From the NCBI RefSeq assembly GCF_013167455.1, contig NZ_CP038328.1: 64,000 bases of DNA; one strand, 5' to 3'. Both the position numbers and the translations under genes were made by a program. Positions 8,263 through 51,824 of the stretch are shown here, one piece after another; positions within the stretch are counted from its first letter, which is position 1, and the number at the start of each line of letters is the position of its first letter. Under the pieces are notes generated by a model that saw nothing but the letters and a program-made list of their open reading frames with translations, had not been told where the DNA came from and did no database searches. The stretch is from Escherichia coli O157:H7 (lineage in GTDB: Bacteria; Pseudomonadota; Gammaproteobacteria; Enterobacterales; Enterobacteriaceae).

Positions 8263-10035
8263 ATGCGTACAGAATATTGTGGACAGCTCCGTTTGTCCCA
8301 CGTGGGGCAGCAGGTGACTCTGTGTGGTTGGGTCAACCGTCGTCGTGATCTTGGTAGCCTGATCTTCATCGATATGCGCGACCGCGAAGGTATCGTGCAG
8401 GTATTTTTCGATCCGGATCGTGCGGACGCGTTAAAGCTGGCCTCTGAACTGCGTAATGAGTTCTGCATTCAGGTCACGGGCACCGTACGTGCGCGTGACG
8501 AAAAAAATATTAACCGCGATATGGCGACCGGCGAAATCGAAGTGCTGGCGTCCTCGCTGACTATCATCAACCGCGCAGATGTTCTGCCGCTTGACTCTAA
8601 CCACGTCAACACCGAAGAAGCGCGTCTGAAATACCGCTACCTCGACCTGCGTCGTCCGGAAATGGCTCAGCGCCTGAAAACCCGCGCTAAAATCACCAGC
8701 CTGGTGCGCCGTTTTATGGATGACCACGGTTTCCTCGACATCGAAACTCCGATGCTGACCAAAGCCACGCCGGAAGGCGCGCGTGACTACCTGGTGCCTT
8801 CTCGTGTGCACAAAGGTAAATTCTACGCACTGCCGCAATCCCCACAGTTGTTCAAACAGCTGCTGATGATGTCCGGCTTTGACCGCTACTATCAGATCGT
8901 TAAATGCTTCCGTGACGAAGACCTGCGCGCTGATCGTCAGCCTGAATTTACTCAGATCGATGTGGAAACTTCTTTCATGACCGCGCCGCAAGTGCGTGAA
9001 GTGATGGAAGCGCTGGTGCGCCATCTGTGGCTGGAAGTGAAGGGCGTGGATCTGGGCGATTTCCCAGTAATGACCTTTGCGGAAGCCGAACGCCGTTATG
9101 GTTCTGATAAACCGGATCTGCGTAACCCGATGGAACTGACCGACGTTGCTGATCTGCTGAGATCTGTTGAGTTTGCAGTATTTGCAGGTCCGGCGAACGA
9201 TCCGAAAGGTCGCGTTGCCGCTCTGTGTGTTCCGGGTGGCGCATCGCTGACCCGTAAGCAGATCGACGAATACGGTAACTTCGTTAAAATCTACGGCGCG
9301 AAAGGTCTGGCTTACATCAAAGTTAACGAACGCGCGAAAGGTCTGGAAGGTATCAACAGCCCGGTAGCGAAGTTCCTTAATGCAGAAATCATCGAAGCCA
9401 TCCTGGATCGTACTGCCGCGCAAGATGGCGATATGATTTTCTTCGGTGCCGACAACAAGAAAATTGTTGCCGACGCGATGGGCGCACTGCGCCTGAAAGT
9501 GGGTAAAGACCTTGGTCTGACCGACGAAAGCAAATGGGCACCGCTGTGGGTTATCGACTTCCCGATGTTTGAAGACGACGGTGAAGGCGGCCTGACGGCA
9601 ATGCACCATCCGTTCACCTCACCGAAAGACATGACGGCTGCAGAGCTGAAAGCTGCACCGGAAAATGCGGTGGCGAACGCTTACGATATGGTCATCAATG
9701 GTTACGAAGTGGGCGGTGGTTCAGTACGTATCCATAATGGTGATATGCAGCAGACGGTGTTTGGTATTCTGGGTATCAACGAAGAGGAACAGCGCGAGAA
9801 ATTCGGCTTCCTGCTCGACGCTCTGAAATACGGTACTCCGCCGCACGCAGGTCTGGCATTCGGTCTTGACCGTCTGACCATGCTGCTGACCGGCACCGAC
9901 AATATCCGTGACGTTATCGCCTTCCCGAAAACCACGGCGGCAGCGTGTCTGATGACTGAAGCACCGAGCTTTGCTAACCCGGCTGCACTGGCTGAGCTGA
10001 GCATTCAGGTTGTGAAGAAGGCTGAGAATAACTGA
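8263..10035 (+). CDS. aspS: Aspartate--tRNA ligase
   Basis: 590-aa ORF; class II aaRS motifs with N-terminal OB anticodon-binding domain. Confidence 0.95.
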
Positions 10036-10633: not shown

Positions 10634-11374
10634 ATGGCAGGTCATAGTAAATGGGCCAACACCAGACATCGTAAAGCTGCGCAGGATGCTAAGCGCGGTA
10701 AAATCTTCACTAAAATCATTCGTGAGCTGGTAACCGCGGCTAAGCTGGGCGGTGGCGATCCGGACGCTAACCCGCGTCTGCGTGCAGCAATTGATAAAGC
10801 ACTGTCTAACAACATGACCCGTGACACTCTGAACCGCGCAATTGCACGTGGTGTGGGCGGTGATGATGATGCGAACATGGAAACCATCATCTACGAAGGT
10901 TACGGTCCTGGCGGCACGGCAATCATGATTGAATGTCTGTCTGACAACCGCAACCGTACCGTTGCTGAAGTGCGTCATGCATTCAGCAAATGTGGCGGTA
11001 ACCTCGGTACTGATGGTTCCGTAGCCTATCTGTTCAGCAAAAAAGGCGTCATCTCCTTCGAGAAAGGCGATGAAGACACCATCATGGAAGCAGCACTGGA
11101 AGCAGGTGCTGAAGACGTTGTGACCTATGATGACGGCGCGATTGATGTCTACACTGCATGGGAAGAAATGGGTAAAGTGCGCGACGCTCTGGAAGCGGCA
11201 GGTCTGAAAGCAGACAGCGCGGAAGTTTCCATGATCCCGTCTACCAAAGCTGATATGGATGCAGAAACCGCACCGAAACTGATGCGTCTGATCGATATGC
11301 TGGAAGATTGCGACGACGTGCAGGAAGTTTACCATAACGGTGAAATCTCTGATGAGGTCGCAGCGACTCTCTGA
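10634..11374 (+). CDS. yebC: YebC/PmpR family transcriptional regulator
   Basis: 246-aa ORF beginning MAGHSKWAN. Confidence 0.9.
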
Positions 11375-14440: not shown

Positions 14441-14675
14441 TCGGATTGGTCGCTCGCACCGCATCCGACATTGGCAGTGTGCCTGATGCGACGCTATTCG
14501 CGTCTTATCAGGCATATACCAGAGATAGCGAACCGTAGGTCGGAAAAGGCGCTCGCGCCGCATCCGACATTGGCAGTGTGCCTGATGCGACGCTGTTCGC
14601 GTCTTACCAGGCCTACCAGAGATAGCGAACCGTAGGTCGGATAAGGCGCTCGCGCCGCATCCGACAAATGTGTTC
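14441..14675. repeat. BIME-like cluster: tandem 98-bp units each carrying REP palindromes
   Basis: catccgacattggcagtgtgcctgatgcgacgct recurs at 14463 and 14561 (period 98 bp), with a partial third copy near 14655. Confidence 0.8.
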
Positions 14676-18690: not shown

Positions 18691-19662
18691 ATGGAAACGA
18701 AAAAAAATAATAGCGAATACATTCCTGAGTTTGATAAATCCTTTCGCCACCCGCGCTACTGGGGAGCATGGCTGGGCGTAGCAGCGATGGCGGGTATCGC
18801 TTTAACGCCGCCAAAGTTCCGTGATCCCATTCTGGCACGGCTGGGACGTATTGCCGGACGACTGGGAAAAAGCTCACGCCGTCGTGCGTTAATCAATCTG
18901 TCGCTCTGCTTTCCAGAACGTAGTGAAGCTGAACGCGAAGCGATTGTTGATGAGATGTTTGCCACCGCGCCGCAAGCGATGGCAATGATGGCTGAGTTGG
19001 CAATACGCGGGCCGGAGAAAATTCAGCCGCGCGTTGACTGGCAAGGGCTGGAGATCATCGAAGAGATGCGGCGTAATAACGAGAAAGTTATCTTTCTAGT
19101 GCCGCACGGTTGGGCCGTCGATATTCCTGCCATGCTGATGGCCTCGCAAGGGCAGAAAATGGCAGCGATGTTCCATAATCAGGGCAACCCGGTTTTTGAT
19201 TATGTCTGGAACACGGTGCGTCGTCGCTTTGGCGGTCGTCTGCATGCGAGAAATGACGGTATTAAACCATTCATCCAGTCGGTACGTCAGGGGTACTGGG
19301 GATATTATTTACCCGATCAGGATCATGGCCCAGAGCACAGCGAATTTGTGGATTTCTTTGCCACCTATAAAGCGACGTTGCCCGCGATTGGTCGTTTGAT
19401 GAAAGTGTGCCGTGCGCGCGTTGTACCGCTGTTTCCGATTTATGATGGCAAGACGCATCGTCTGACGATTCAGGTGCGCCCACCGATGGATGATCTGTTA
19501 GAGGCGGATGATCATACGATTGCGCGGCGGATGAATGAAGAAGTCGAGATTTTTGTTGGTCCGCGACCAGAACAATACACCTGGATACTAAAATTGCTGA
19601 AAACTCGCAAACCGGGCGAAATCCAGCCGTATAAGCGCAAAGATCTTTATCCCATCAAATAA
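18691..19662 (+). CDS. lpxM: Lipid A myristoyltransferase LpxM (MsbB)
   Basis: 323-aa ORF. Confidence 0.9.
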
Positions 19663-19663
19663 A

Positions 19664-19692
19664 AAAGCCTCTCGCGAGGAGAGGCCTTCGCC
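19664..19692 (-). terminator. Hairpin with U-run on the minus strand; likely pykA terminator, placed right after the lpxM stop
   Basis: gcctctcgcgaggagaggc stem preceded by aaaaaa on the plus strand. Confidence 0.55.
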
Positions 19693-19737
19693 TGATGATA
19701 AGTTCAAGTTTGCTTCAGAATATTCGAAATCTGTTGA

Positions 19738-19785
19738 ACTATCATTGAACTGTAGGCCGGATGTGGCGTTTTCGCCGCATCCGGC
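19738..19785. repeat. REP element
   Basis: gtaggccggatgtggcgttttcgccgcatccggcaacg. Confidence 0.7.
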
Positions 19786-19792
19786 AACGTAC

Positions 19793-21235
19793 TTACTCTA
19801 CCGTTAAAATACGCGTGGTATTAGTAGAACCCACGGTACTCATCACGTCGCCCTGGGTGACAATCACCAGGTCACCAGACATCAAGTAACCTTTATCGCG
19901 CAGCAGATTAACCGCTTCGCTGGCAGCTGCTACGCCGTCATTAGCGCTATCAAAGTGCACCGGCGTAACGCCACGATAGAGAGCAGTCAGGTTCAGCGTA
20001 CGTTCATGGCGCGACATGGCGAAAATTGGTAGACCAGAGCTGATACGGGAGGTCATCAGCGCGGTACGACCCGATTCGGTCATGGTAATGATCGCCGTAA
20101 CGCCTTTCAGGTGGTTAGCTGCGTACATTGCTGACATGGCAATAGCTTCTTCCACATTGTCGAACTGAACGTCCAGACGGTGTTTAGAAACGTTGATGCT
20201 CGGGATTTTTTCCGCACCCAGGCAAACGCGCGCCATGGCTGCAACAGTTTCTGACGGATACTGCCCAGCGGCAGTTTCTGCAGACAGCATCACAGCGTCA
20301 GTACCATCCAGAACGGCGTTTGCTACGTCCATGACTTCTGCACGCGTCGGCATCGGGTTAGTAATCATTGACTCCATCATCTGGGTCGCCGTGATTACCG
20401 CTCGGTTTAGCTGACGCGCACGACGGATCAACGCTTTCTGAATGCCGACCAGTTCCGGGTCGCCAATTTCCACACCGAGGTCGCCACGTGCAACCATTAC
20501 CACGTCAGAGGCGAGGATGATGTCATCCATTGCATCCTGGCTGCAAACGGCTTCCGCACGTTCAACCTTGGCAACAATTTTCGCATCACATCCTGCATCG
20601 CGTGCCAGGCGACGGGCATAGTTCAGATCTTCGCCACAGCGTGGGAAGGAGACAGCCAGGTAATCTACGCCAATCAACGCCGCAGTCTTAATGTCTGCTT
20701 TGTCTTTTTCGGTCAGCGCTTCAGCCGACAAACCGCCGCCAAGTTTGTTGATACCTTTATTGTTGGAGAGGGGACCACCGACGGTGACTTCGGTGAACAC
20801 TTTCATGCCCTGAACTTCCAGTACTTTTAACTGGACGCGACCATCGTCCAGCAGCAGGATGTCACCAGGCACGACGTCAGCAGGCAGGCCTTTGTAGTTG
20901 ATACCGACTTTTTCTTTGTCGCCTTCACCTTTACCCAGGTTGGCGTCGAGCAGGAATTTATCCCCAATATTGAGGAAAACTTTGCCTTCTTTAAAGGTGG
21001 ATACACGGATTTTGGGCCCCTGGAGGTCACCCAGAATAGCCACATGACGCCCCAGTTTTGCGGCAATCTCACGAACTTTATCCGCGCGCATTTTGTGATC
21101 TTCAGGCGAGCCGTGAGAAAAGTTCATACGTACAACGTTGGCACCCGCCGCGATAACTTTTTCAAGATTATTATCGCGATCTGTTGCTGGGCCTAACGTG
21201 GTAACGATTTTTGTTCTGCGAAGCCTTCTGGACAT
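19793..21235 (-). CDS. pykA: Pyruvate kinase II
   Basis: 480 aa from the internal ATG ([16 protein letters not shown]); upstream 47 codons of the ORF-track entry are read-through. Confidence 0.9.
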
Positions 21236-34292: not shown

Positions 34293-35165
34293 ATGCTGGC
34301 GTTTACCTGGATCGCGCTGCGATTTATCCATTTCACCTCGCTGATGCTGGTCTTTGGCTTCGCAATGTACGGTGCCTGGCTGGCACCCTTAACGATTCGT
34401 CGCTTGCTGACGAAGCGTTTTCTGCGTTTACAACAGCACGCTGCCGTCTGGAGTTTGATCAGTGCCACTGCAATGCTCGCCGTTCAGGGCGGGTTGATGG
34501 GAACGGGATGGAAAGATGTATTTTCGCCAAACATTTGGCAGGCTGTTTTGCAAACGCAGTTTGGTGGCGTCTGGTTATGGCAAATTGTTCTCGCCCTCGT
34601 AACGTTGATCGTCGCCCTTATGCAACCGCGGAATATGCCACGTTTGCTGTTTATGCTCACTACCGCGCAATTTATTCTGCTGGCGGGAGTGGGGCATGCG
34701 ACGCTGAATGAAGGGGTAACGGCGAAAATCCATCAGACTAATCACGCGATTCACCTGATTTGTGCGGCGGCGTGGTTTGGGGGATTACTGCCGGTGCTCT
34801 GGTGTATGCAACTCATCAAAGGCCGTTGGCGACACCAGGCTATTCAGGCGCTGATGCGTTTTTCCTGGTGCGGGCATTTTGCGGTGATCGGCGTACTGGC
34901 AAGCGGCGTGCTTAATGCATTGTTGATTACCGGATTTCCCCCCACGCTTACGACTTACTGGGGCCAACTCTTATTGCTCAAAGCCATCCTGGTGATGATT
35001 ATGGTGGTCATTGCGCTGGCTAATCGTTATGTTCTTGTACCGCGCATGAGGCAGGATGAAGATCGTGCGGCACCCTGGTTTGTGTGGATGACTAAACTCG
35101 AATGGGCGATAGGTGCGGTAGTGCTGCTGATCATCAGCCTGCTTGCGACTCTCGAACCTTTTTGA
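34293..35165 (+). CDS. yebZ: CopD-family inner membrane protein YebZ
   Basis: 290-aa polytopic membrane ORF, 3 nt after yobA. Confidence 0.85.
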   Translation: MLAFTWIALRFIHFTSLMLVFGFAMYGAWLAPLTIRRLLTKRFLRLQQHAAVWSLISATAMLAVQGGLMGTGWKDVFSPNIWQAVLQTQFGGVWLWQIVLALVTLIVALMQPRNMPRLLFMLTTAQFILLAGVGHATLNEGVTAKIHQTNHAIHLICAAAWFGGLLPVLWCMQLIKGRWRHQAIQALMRFSWCGHFAVIGVLASGVLNALLITGFPPTLTTYWGQLLLLKAILVMIMVVIALANRYVLVPRMRQDEDRAAPWFVWMTKLEWAIGAVVLLIISLLATLEPF

Positions 35166-35177
35166 TGGATTACGAAA

Positions 35178-35519
35178 ATGATGAAAAAAAGTATTCTGGC
35201 GTTTCTGTTACTCACCAGTTCTGCAGCGGCGCTGGCTGCACCGCAGGTGATTACCGTCAGCCGTTTTGAAGTGGGTAAAGACAAATGGGCGTTTAATCGC
35301 GAAGAGGTGATGCTGACTTGCCGACCGGGTAATGCTTTGTATGTCATCAACCCAAGTACCCTCGTGCAGTATCCTTTAAACGATGTCGCACAGAAGGAAG
35401 TTGCCAGTGGGAAGACTAAAGCCCAACCCATTTCGGTGATTCAGATTGATGATCCCAACAATCCCGGCGAAAAAATGAGTCTGGCACCGTTTATAGAACG
35501 AGCTGAAAAACTCTGTTAA
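35178..35519 (+). CDS. yebY: Periplasmic DUF2511 protein YebY
   Basis: 113-aa ORF with signal peptide. Confidence 0.8.
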
Positions 35520-35549
35520 TTACCTAAAATAGCCTTTTGATTTCCAATA

Positions 35550-35592
35550 AAAAAACCGCCTCAGTTCTTTCACCAGAACGGGCGGTTTTTAA
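35550..35592. terminator. Bidirectional rho-independent terminator (yebY on plus, probably RyeA on minus)
   Basis: aaaaaaaccgcc...ggcggttttt: GC stem flanked by A-run and T-run. Confidence 0.7.
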
Positions 35593-35677
35593 CATTTAAG
35601 CTGATGACCACCGCGCTTTTTATTGACCATTTTGCACGCAAACTGGAAAACCTGGCGTCGTCATCTATTCTTAAAGG

Positions 35678-35780
35678 GCAAGGCAACTAAGCCTGCATTA
35701 ATGCCAACTTTTAGCGCACGGCTCTCTCCCAAGAGCCATTTCCCTGGACCGAATACAGGAATCGTGTTCGGTCTCTTTTT
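35678..35780 (+). ncRNA. sdsR: SdsR (RyeB) sigma-S-dependent sRNA
   Basis: Sequence gcaaggcaactaagcctgcattaatgcc...gaccgaatacaggaatcgtgttcggtctcttttt recognised; sigma-S-like -10 CTATTCT at 35665..35671; terminal hairpin GACCGAA/TTCGGTC plus U-run. Confidence 0.8.
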
Positions 35781-35914
35781 ATCTGTTAAAAGCCAGAAGC
35801 ATTTCCTTCGCTGACTTTATAGTCAACCATAACACACACTCTACTGTCTGAGTCCAGCGTTTTTTAACATTCTTGTTAAGATTATGTGATCTTTAGCGCG
35901 GGAGGAAAATATTG

Positions 35915-36571
35915 ATGAAACAGCCTGCGCCCGTTTATCAGAGAATTGCGGGTCATCAATGGCGACATATCTGGCTTTCTGGCGATATACACGGTTGTCT
36001 TGAGCAGTTGCGCCGCAAATTATGGCATTGTCGTTTTGATCCGTGGCGAGATTTACTTATCTCAGTGGGAGACGTTATCGATCGTGGGCCGCAAAGTTTA
36101 CGTTGTCTGCAGTTACTGGAACAACATTGGGTTCGTGCGGTAAGAGGCAATCATGAACAGATGGCGATGGATGCGCTGGCATCCCAGCAGATGTCTTTGT
36201 GGTTGATGAATGGCGGCGACTGGTTTATTGCGCTGGCAGATAATCAACAGAAACAAGCGAAAACGGCGCTGGAAAAATGTCAGCATTTGCCCTTTATTCT
36301 TGAAGTACACAGCCGCACCGGCAAACATGTTATTGCTCATGCCGATTATCCAGATGATGTTTATGAATGGCAAAAGGACGTTGATTTGCATCAGGTCTTG
36401 TGGAGCCGCTCGCGATTAAGTGAACGCCAAAAAGGGCAGGGAATTACAGGTGCTGATCATTTCTGGTTTGGTCATACACCGTTGCGCCATCGCGTGGATA
36501 TTGGCAACCTGCATTATATTGATACCGGCGCTGTCTTTGGGGGCGAACTGACTTTCGTGCAATTGCAATAA
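35915..36571 (+). CDS. pphA: Serine/threonine protein phosphatase 1
   Basis: 218 aa; calcineurin-like metallophosphatase motifs GDIHG, GDVIDRG, GNHE. Confidence 0.85.
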   Translation: MKQPAPVYQRIAGHQWRHIWLSGDIHGCLEQLRRKLWHCRFDPWRDLLISVGDVIDRGPQSLRCLQLLEQHWVRAVRGNHEQMAMDALASQQMSLWLMNGGDWFIALADNQQKQAKTALEKCQHLPFILEVHSRTGKHVIAHADYPDDVYEWQKDVDLHQVLWSRSRLSERQKGQGITGADHFWFGHTPLRHRVDIGNLHYIDTGAVFGGELTFVQLQ

Positions 36572-46258: not shown

Positions 46259-46308
46259 ATGTGGGTATCGCATATTGCGTTTTGTTAAACTGAGGTAAAA
46301 AGAAAATT

Positions 46309-47190
46309 ATGATGCGAATCGCGCTCTTCCTGCTAACGAACCTGGCCGTAATGGTCGTTTTCGGGCTGGTACTGAGCCTGACAGGGATACAGTCGAGCAG
46401 CGTTCAGGGGCTGATGATCATGGCCTTGCTGTTCGGTTTTGGTGGTTCCTTCGTTTCGCTTCTGATGTCCAAATGGATGGCATTACGATCTGTTGGCGGG
46501 GAAGTGATCGAGCAACCGCGTAACGAAAGGGAACGTTGGCTGGTCAATACTGTAGCAACCCAGGCTCGTCAGGCGGGGATCGCTATGCCGCAAGTGGCTA
46601 TCTACCATGCGCCGGACATCAACGCTTTTGCAACCGGTGCGCGCCGTGATGCCTCTCTGGTTGCTGTCAGCACCGGTTTGCTGCAGAACATGAGCCCGGA
46701 TGAAGCCGAGGCGGTAATTGCTCACGAAATCAGCCACATCGCCAATGGTGATATGGTCACCATGACGCTGATTCAGGGCGTGGTGAACACCTTCGTTATC
46801 TTTATTTCCCGTATCCTGGCGCAGCTTGCCGCGGGTTTTATGGGCGGAAATCGTGATGAAGGTGAAGAGAGCAACGGCAACCCGCTGATCTACTTTGCGG
46901 TTGCAACGGTTCTGGAACTGGTGTTTGGTATTCTGGCGAGCATTATCACCATGTGGTTCTCGCGTCATCGTGAATTCCATGCTGATGCCGGTTCGGCAAA
47001 ACTGGTTGGTCGCGAGAAAATGATTGCCGCGCTGCAGCGCCTGAAAACCAGCTATGAACCGCAAGAAGCAACCAGCATGATGGCTTTCTGCATTAACGGT
47101 AAGTCGAAATCGCTCAGTGAGTTGTTTATGACTCACCCGCCGCTGGATAAACGTATTGAAGCTCTGCGTACGGGTGAATACCTGAAGTAA
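46309..47190 (+). CDS. htpX: Heat-shock membrane zinc metalloprotease HtpX (M48)
   Basis: 293 aa; HEISH zinc motif. Confidence 0.95.
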
Positions 47191-50668: not shown

Positions 50669-51293
50669 AATTCATCCTGATTATACGCACTGTCATGGTG
50701 CAACTGCTTCAAATTAAAACTCTGGTCTGACTTCAAATAATTATCATATTATTTATTTGCGTAACGGGATATCAGAAAAAGATATTTACCCCATTAATTT
50801 ATTAGGATGTTTACATCGGATTTGTGATTAAGCGTGGTATTATTTATTAGCGAAACGTTTCTCTCTTGATTTTTTTTGCTTATTCATCAATTTTTCTTAT
50901 TTTAAATTTCCAATTCCTTTGGGATTGACTTCTCTTTGGGGTGATTGAGAGCCGTTAACTGCCTGTTTTATGAGAAAAAGTGATATAACTTTTTATTCAT
51001 TGCATAGCAGAAAATGTGATATTGCACGCACTATGTAATAACTTCTCCCACTGACCTGGAACAACTGAACTTATTGAACTATGTTAGAAACTACGTCAGT
51101 TTAAGTATCTGCGGAACTGACAAGGTTAAGCACAATGATATATCGGCGCGTATTCCGTTGCATAAGTGTGCAAAAAAAGTGGAAGACGTATCGAGATTTG
51201 TGCGTCTGATCGAGACATGTTTAAAAATGGCTTGCCATAATTAACGTTGTATGTGATAACAGATTTCGGGTTAAACGAGGTACAGTTCTGTTT

Positions 51294-51437
51294 ATGTGTG
51301 GCATTTTCAGTAAAGAAGTCCTGAGTAAACACGTTGACGTTGAATACCGCTTCTCTGCCGAGCCTTATATTGGTGCCTCATGCAGTAATGTGTCAGTTTT
51401 ATCTATGTTATGCCTGCGGGCGAAGAAAACAATCTAA
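51294..51437 (+). CDS. yobF: YobF, 47-aa small protein in the cspC leader; below the ORF-track size cutoff
   Basis: ATG 51294 to TAA 51435..51437; translation [47 protein letters not shown]; 12 nt before cspC. Confidence 0.8.
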
Positions 51438-51449
51438 GGAATTTTTCAA

Positions 51450-51659
51450 ATGGCAAAGATTAAAGGTCAGGTTAAGTGGTTCAACGAGTCTAAAGGTTTT
51501 GGCTTCATTACTCCTGCTGATGGCAGCAAAGACGTGTTCGTACACTTCTCCGCTATCCAGGGTAATGGCTTCAAAACTCTGGCTGAAGGTCAGAACGTTG
51601 AGTTCGAAATTCAGGACGGCCAGAAAGGTCCGGCAGCTGTTAACGTAACAGCTATCTGA
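51450..51659 (+). CDS. cspC: Cold-shock-domain protein CspC
   Basis: 69 aa; RNP1 motif KGFGFI. Confidence 0.95.
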
Positions 51660-51703
51660 TCGAATCCACTGATCTGAAGTGTGAATACGCTTCAATCTCG
51701 CTA

Positions 51704-51732
51704 TAAAGCCTCGTCGAATGCGAGGCTTTTTA
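51704..51732 (+). terminator. Rho-independent terminator after cspC
   Basis: aaagcctcgtcgaatgcgaggcttttt. Confidence 0.75.
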
Positions 51733-51824
51733 CTATGCTTTATCTTCGCTCCTGGCGTTCGGATATTTGCCCGCCGCGTGATTCGCGTTACACTTGCGGC
51801 CTTTAGTATCCTGCCGGAGTTGTC

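Follow-up and report, generated by a model that had tools for sequence, protein, structure and literature searches.

The sdsR/ryeA antisense RNA locus of an Escherichia coli O157:H7-type chromosome and its unoccupied prophage attachment site

The small RNA genes sdsR and ryeA of Escherichia coli have been under study since 2001-2003, and detailed mechanistic papers on them appeared in 2011 and 2019. In the curated record of K-12 MG1655, they are found between pphA and yebY as b4433 (sdsR or ryeB, 104 nt) and b4432 (ryeA or sraC, 272 nt). In Salmonella, the ryeA/ryeB locus is reportedly an insertion hot spot for horizontally acquired DNA, the subject of a paper by Balbontin et al. in J Bacteriol in 2008, which PMC6610125 and PMC3333887 both cite. 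RyeA of K-12 and its expression reciprocal to that of SdsR have been described by Northern blot, RACE and in vitro transcription, and the two RNAs degrade each other (PMC6610125). The pair also stands in TADB 3.0 (PMC10767807) as an experimentally validated type VIII toxin-antitoxin locus. The likeness to such systems, creTA being another, is that both partners are RNAs and that the antisense partner promotes decay.

The window, i.e. the whole stretch of 64,000 nucleotides of E. coli O157:H7 DNA that was analysed, contains a complete copy of this locus. The initial annotation had proposed an overlapping antisense SdsR/RyeA pair between yebY and pphA, and all its structural details proved right in the alignment to K-12, in Rfam, in the folds and against published primers. 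The frame of the locus is as follows:

35178 to 35519, plus strand: yebY coding sequence (ORF and RefSeq), the conserved upstream neighbour of sdsR
35520 to 35914: yebY-pphA intergenic region, 395 nt, complete (ORF list and RefSeq annotation)
35915 to 36571, plus strand: pphA, serine/threonine phosphatase 1 (ORF and RefSeq annotation)

The longest ORF of pphA opens at TTG 35912 and RefSeq has ATG 35915, a trivial difference (35912-35917).

A 1.2-kb query (35100-36300) was 100% identical to many O157:H7 chromosomes, and the intergenic region, like the 1.2-kb query, was found in 5,425 of 5,426 complete E. coli genomes, which is beyond chance. The intergenic region of K-12 MG1655 aligned to the window without gaps over 395 nt, with 2 substitutions. 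In this alignment, which the initial annotation had put forward as a check, sdsR was 100% identical and ryeA identical at 270 of 272 nt. The substitutions in ryeA (35598, A for C; 35613, G for A) lie in the RyeA 3' part, outside the overlap with SdsR that would form the duplex, outside the promoter and outside the terminator. Thus, sdsR of the window agrees with that of K-12 over all 104 nt, in its place downstream of yebY, in its sigma-S -10 element with C(-13), in its hairpins and in its terminator; the RNA is without difference, and what differs is the host, an O157:H7-type strain and not K-12. Likewise, ryeA has the same extended -10 (TGT-TATGGT), start (35818) and terminator as in K-12, and only the 2 nt in its 3' part differ.

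The sdsR/ryeA locus is already known and well studied. The copy in the window is almost certainly the canonical E. coli locus and would be expected to work as in K-12. From the identity to K-12 we infer that transcription, sigma dependence, RNA ends, degradation, interference and targets would carry over to the O157-type strain; that RyeA and SdsR are transcribed there is assumed on the same ground. For discovery the locus therefore adds little, and its practical value is in annotation. An O157-type RefSeq record identical over 35100-36300 lists no ncRNA at the locus, so routine annotation would miss both RNAs, the empty attachment site described below and the fact that pphA depends on the sdsR promoter. 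The pair had been called invisible to ORF-based annotation. This holds for the O157-type record but not for the curated K-12 record, where both RNAs are annotated.

The elements of sdsR in the window are:

35643 to 35648, plus strand: -35-like hexamer CTGGAA, with a 17-nt spacer to the -10 element
35665 to 35671, plus strand: sigma-S-type -10 element, C(-13) and TATTCT, placed by a published mutagenic primer and by conservation
35677 to 35780, plus strand: SdsR (RyeB) sRNA, 100% identical to K-12 b4433, 104 nt
35746 to 35780, plus strand: SdsR Rho-independent terminator, an 11-bp stem (35746-35774) followed by a T-run, from terminator scan and fold

SdsR follows yebY in the same orientation, with the end of yebY at 35519 and the start of SdsR at 35677/8. 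The plus-strand SdsR named by the initial annotation is confirmed, and K-12 sdsR matches the window exactly at 35677-35780. Its fold had a free energy of -35.2 kcal/mol (z -3.8). In K-12, the start has been mapped 1 nt downstream of the older annotation, which corresponds to 35678, and the 3' ends fall at 35777-35779 (PMC6610125). A start at 35678 makes TATTCT the hexamer from -12 to -7 and C35665 the -13 cytosine. With its flanks, the -10 element reads TCTATTCTTAA and agrees at 10 of 11 positions with the sigma-S consensus KCTAYRCTTAA. The -13 cytosine is the sigma-S determinant of the sdsR promoter (PMC3333887), and the dependence of sdsR on sigma-S has been described (PMC3333887, PMC6610125). 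Primer PM_SdsRR (GTCATC-CTCGAG-TAAAGGGCAAGGCAAC) swaps exactly TATTCT for CTCGAG, and the mutant is without SdsR (PMC6610125). The sigma-S-type -10 CTATTCT noticed initially is thus found at 35665-35671, with the very hexamer that the published primer replaced, and the intrinsic terminator noticed with it corresponds to the 11-bp stem and T-run. From its position, CTGGAA would act as the -35 element.

A generic promoter scan, which models canonical sigma-70 sites only, detected neither the sdsR nor the ryeA promoter. Its sole match (35503-35530) was rejected as no more than chance expectation.

On the opposite strand, the elements of ryeA are:

35547 to 35818, minus strand: RyeA (SraC) antisense RNA, 272 nt, spanning all of SdsR and the sdsR promoter, gapless against K-12 b4432
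35826 to 35834, minus strand: ryeA sigma-70 promoter with the extended -10 TGT-TATGGT (hexamer from 35831 to 35826), identical to K-12
35549 to 35590, both strands: bidirectional intrinsic terminator with an A-run (35549-35555), a stem (35556-35585) and a T-run (35586-35590)

Primer PM_RyeAF swaps the plus-strand ACCATA (35826-35831) for CTCGAG and thereby abolishes RyeA, and ryeA is transcribed in vitro by E-sigma-70 only (PMC6610125). The replaced hexamer identifies TATGGT on the minus strand as the ryeA -10, and the TGT ahead of it makes it an extended one. The RyeA start at 35818 is identical to K-12, and the RNA folded with -87.8 kcal/mol (z -3.05). The bidirectional terminator had been placed at 35550-35592 by the initial annotation and was found within a few bases of this, with the U-run on the minus strand (seven U after the stem). 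Its folds were well below shuffled controls on both strands (-19.8 kcal/mol, z -4.7, on the plus strand; -20.6 kcal/mol, z -3.3, on the minus strand). The generic terminator scan missed it because of an internal bulge, and it was recovered by folding. This element is predicted to end yebY transcripts on the plus strand and RyeA on the minus strand. Published RyeA 3' ends, +261 to +270, correspond to 35558-35549 (PMC6610125). The ends +269 and +270 fall at 35550 and 35549, consistent with the end of RyeA at this hairpin that had been supposed. SdsR and RyeA both terminate Rho-independently in vitro (PMC6610125). Read on the RyeA strand, the SdsR terminator hairpin is weak (-11.1 kcal/mol, z -1.3) and has no U-run after it.

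Between the SdsR terminator and pphA lies one further element:

35781 to 35914, plus strand: sdsR-pphA read-through leader, which also holds the RyeA 5' end and promoter on the minus strand; identical to K-12

In K-12, most pphA transcription starts at the sdsR promoter and passes the SdsR terminator by read-through; pphA is repressed in cis by ryeA transcription and not by RyeA RNA in trans (PMC6610125). A mechanism for the window can be proposed from this K-12 work. In stationary phase, the C(-13)-TATTCT promoter would direct the sigma-S polymerase to start at 35678. The majority of transcripts would end at the hairpin and T-run of 35746-35780 and give an SdsR of ~102 nt, which, reportedly associated with Hfq, would pair with targets in trans over short stretches and repress them (tolC, yhcB and mutS in E. 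coli; ompD in Salmonella), and some would pass the terminator by read-through and reach pphA. The sigma-70 promoter TGT-TATGGT (35834-35826, minus strand) would be active in exponential phase and yield the 272-nt RyeA, which would cross all of SdsR and the sdsR promoter in antisense and halt at the bidirectional terminator of 35549-35590. RyeA would curb SdsR in two ways. Firstly, the two RNAs would form a duplex and be mutually degraded. Secondly, convergent transcription would interfere in cis with sdsR and sdsR-pphA transcription. As an outcome, expression of SdsR and PphA would be confined sharply to stationary phase. The size of the RyeA effect is modest and disputed, since deletion of the sraC promoter raised SdsR only ~1.5-fold (PMC3333887).

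The whole window was scanned with Rfam at gathering thresholds, a check that the initial annotation had named, and two matches were obtained at the locus. SdsR_RyeB (RF00111) matched 35681-35780 on the plus strand with 114.4 bits (gathering score 38) over model positions 1-100 of 100, and SraC_RyeA (RF00101) matched 35784-35640 on the minus strand with 175.1 bits (gathering score 37). Both families were thus far above threshold; RF00101, however, is unable to tell RyeA from SdsR. This model has 145 nt and covers 145 of the 272 nt of RyeA (35640-35784), which is the antisense of SdsR and of the sdsR promoter, and it includes none of the first 34 nt and none of the last 93 nt of RyeA. Therefore, its match is not independent evidence for RyeA. 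RF00101 scored 120-175 bits in every Enterobacterales locus tested and was above threshold in Shewanella and Paraglaciecola too; it matched in Yersinia, Dickeya and Shewanella, genera that lack the RyeA promoter known from E. coli. Taking RF00101 matches in other genera as conservation of RyeA was rejected accordingly, as the model spans 35640-35784 only and matches even Shewanella. For specialists this is a useful caveat: by construction, the Rfam model of RyeA cannot show that RyeA exists.

The same scan gave other RNA matches in the window. A full-length match to MicL (RF02654, 373.7 bits), a sigma-E-dependent sRNA within the 3' end of cutC, was found at 37-344 on the plus strand. The cspA thermoregulator family (RF01766) matched 51274-51734 on the plus strand with 136.9 bits and many non-canonical pairs; synteny places this match in the yobF-cspC region, and the PGAP gene name is cspE. 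A naRNA4/CssrE match at 14538-14613 on the plus strand (61.5 bits) was just over the gathering score of 59.5 and resembles a REP-type element, and ES036/CssrF matched 4322-4280 on the minus strand with 45.5 bits.

To describe conservation, species-representative genomes were scanned with a pattern of the SdsR central hairpin. At least 120 loci were obtained, from at least ~40 Enterobacterales genera and from Shewanella and Paraglaciecola. As the pattern selected the central hairpin only, the columns of the sdsR promoter lie outside it. Among the matches listed, identity to the window was high only over ~35642-35781, i.e. the sdsR promoter and SdsR, and outside Escherichia it collapsed at 35782. 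In the same listed matches, C-13 was kept in 108 of 109 loci and the T, A, C and T positions of the hexamer in 106-109 of 109. Further upstream, in the CTGGAAAA block, the TGG of 35644-35646 was retained in 105-106 of 109 loci and the remaining positions in 87-104; in the -35-like hexamer these are C35643 and A35647 (87 of 109 each) and A35648 (99 of 109), all among the matches listed. In nearly every Enterobacterales locus examined, the SdsR core was preceded by a YebY homologue that ended 176-234 nt upstream of it.

At the level of structure, RNAalifold recovered the central and the terminator hairpins from the 101 distinct SdsR sequences among the matches listed. The central hairpin is without variation because the search pattern fixed it. 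The terminator showed compensatory changes at four pairs, and G.U pairs at five positions of SdsR occurred in 66, 34, 9, 8 and 5 sequences (again among the matches listed). Since each of these G.U pairs would be a C.A mismatch in the opposite strand, they point to structural selection on the SdsR strand, with which the weak fold of the hairpin on the RyeA strand agrees. The stem of the 5' hairpin was not called by RNAalifold, and indels make the MAFFT alignment of the 5' 20 nt unreliable.

An unannotated small protein, with the RNA signals as secondary, would be another way to read such a conserved block. Mechanical ORFs of 20-63 aa do exist on both strands, e.g. 35623-35814 (plus strand, 63 aa) and 35570-35686 (minus strand, 38 aa). 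Six of them were intact in just 0, 0, 1, 2, 3 and 16 of 108 homologous loci among the matches listed, and the conserved block, which stops at the terminator, shows almost no variation at any of the three codon positions. On the persistence of these ORFs, the small-protein hypothesis was rejected, and we regard it as extremely improbable.

Homologues of SdsR were also seen beyond Enterobacterales, in Shewanella (L031 at 9565-9667, L067 at 2041-2143, L054 and L111) and Paraglaciecola (L098 at 11011-11110), with RF00111 scores of 62-87 bits. These have the central hairpin and the terminator in common, differ in the 5' part and lack an upstream yebY; a C-TAYACT -10 box is retained in the Shewanella copies. 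One record titled Martelella alba BGMRC 2031 (L120) holds a typical Enterobacterales yebY-sdsR locus (RF00111 109 bits, YebY 52% identical). Martelella is an alphaproteobacterium, which would suggest that this assembly is mislabelled or contaminated.

The RyeA side of the locus behaved differently from sdsR. The RyeA 5' part and promoter (35782-35860) could be aligned downstream of SdsR at 74 of 79 positions in E. coli and at 49 of 57 in Escherichia sp. E1V33. Among the matches listed, they were unalignable in E. albertii, Salmonella and Citrobacter, where sdsR itself is conserved, and only Escherichia matched. Conservation of sraC has been described as confined to its overlap with sdsR (PMC3333887), and the alignment here reproduces this conclusion. 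Given the scope of RF00101 and the restriction of the RyeA 5' part to Escherichia, the evidence for RyeA in the window is therefore its identity to the mapped K-12 gene, promoter and terminator included.

From this pattern it could be argued that RyeA has no selected function, being antisense transcription that a chance promoter in variable DNA sets off incidentally, and that only SdsR matters. Among the matches listed, conservation indeed stops exactly at the SdsR terminator and RyeA-specific sequence is restricted to Escherichia; sdsR conservation alone explains the RF00101 matches, and SdsR has been considered the primary RNA of the locus, with SraC promoters that differ between species (PMC3333887). 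However, in K-12, mutation of the ryeA promoter makes SdsR appear earlier, raises pphA mRNA and lifts an sdsR-lacZ read-through fusion ~4-fold (PMC6610125). Moreover, SraC antisense species occur in Salmonella and Shigella with a different promoter position (PMC3333887), which suggests that antisense transcription persists. The A-run/stem/T-run form of the bidirectional terminator, in which the upstream A-run gives the antisense U-run, was kept in 66 of 109 loci among the matches listed; this form may reflect widespread antisense termination, with which it is compatible without being proof. We therefore hold a RyeA devoid of function to be quite improbable and retain a RyeA that acts on sdsR and pphA.

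The 3' end of sdsR showed a further property, at the following site:

35750 to 35781: attB core, 32 bp, unoccupied, coinciding with the SdsR terminator

In ~237 E. coli genomes, the intergenic region was split into two places. In strain PV0838, a lambdoid prophage of ~49 kb with nleG7 lies between sdsR and pphA, and a tyrosine integrase and an excisionase adjoin attL, starting 91 nt after the SdsR terminator core. Here, attL holds intergenic positions 1-262 and attR positions 231-395, so that the duplicated core corresponds to 35750-35781 of the window. The prophage junction was found in 227 of 5,426 complete E. coli genomes (4.2%), and phage PP818812.1 matched from the exact first base of the core through int. 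Thus, the core is duplicated at both prophage ends, a tyrosine integrase adjoins it and the core is present in a phage genome, as befits an attachment site. Integration restores an intact sdsR at attL and leaves the ryeA promoter and pphA at attR, ~49 kb off. The likeness to the hot spot reported at the Salmonella ryeA/ryeB locus is the use of the sdsR 3' end as integration site; in the window the site is empty.

Two side observations concern this site and its surroundings. Positions 46270-46739 of PP818812.1 contain the sdsR-terminator core and share 96.4% identity with the integrase region of the E. coli prophage; the phage was deposited as 'Actinobacillus phage vB_Apl-pPE4', a host assignment that is odd given an attP with E. 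coli sdsR sequence. In E. coli FDAARGOS_944 (L004, ~19233-19998), an IS1A lies in the 5' part of sdsR/ryeA, at ~35687 in window terms. This insertion is, judged from the sequence, a natural knockout of both RNAs in one complete genome.

These data also bear on the view of the pair as a true type VIII toxin-antitoxin system, in which SdsR would be a toxin that arrests growth through repression of yhcB and RyeA would be needed continuously. SdsR toxicity was reportedly seen, in the 2018 work of Choi, on overexpression. The initial annotation was accurate in saying that a toxin/antitoxin-like RNA duo is how the pair has been described, as PMC6610125 calls the two RNAs toxin and antitoxin and TADB 3.0 (PMC10767807) lists them as type VIII. 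The mutual degradation of the two RNAs fits such a system (PMC6610125), as does toxicity through yhcB, to the extent that PMC6610125 cites Choi 2018 for it. On the other hand, mutation of the ryeA -10 leaves cells viable and changes only 17 genes in exponential phase and 5 in stationary phase, and the wording 'SdsR-overexpressing cells' in the same paper suggests that toxicity arose on overexpression (PMC6610125). SdsR rises only ~1.5-fold without the sraC promoter (PMC3333887). The comparative results point in the same direction: among the matches listed, E. coli and one Escherichia species alone had an alignable RyeA 5' part and promoter, the G.U pairs indicate structural selection on the SdsR strand, and in the 227 of 5,426 E. 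coli genomes with the junction the prophage puts the ryeA promoter ~49 kb from the sdsR body and leaves sdsR intact. Toxin and antitoxin of a type VIII system would be inherited jointly; here, sdsR and its promoter were conserved across at least ~40 genera, the RyeA part was confined to Escherichia and the prophage splits the two. Therefore, unlike type VIII systems, this is a chromosomal core locus whose 'antitoxin' is not co-conserved with its 'toxin' and is dispensable, as promoter mutants show; natural uncoupling is found in 4.2% of E. coli genomes. We consider a true type VIII system unlikely. The toxin/antitoxin framing appears to overstate the comparative and published data, and as a label it is weak. 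Natural lysogens offer a ready test of the claim.

We tentatively suggest, as a possibility short of an even chance, that RyeA could be a young, Escherichia-specific antisense brake that lies in variable DNA immediately past a phage integration site, that lysogeny could rewire the circuit of this sigma-S-dependent sRNA and that the window could represent the ancestral state, with the site unoccupied. If this were true, integration would cut the sdsR promoter off from pphA and from the ryeA promoter. Lysogens would then make SdsR earlier or in larger amounts, and their pphA would be deprived of its sigma-S promoter. Some of the prophages at the SdsR terminator carry T3SS effector genes such as nleG7.
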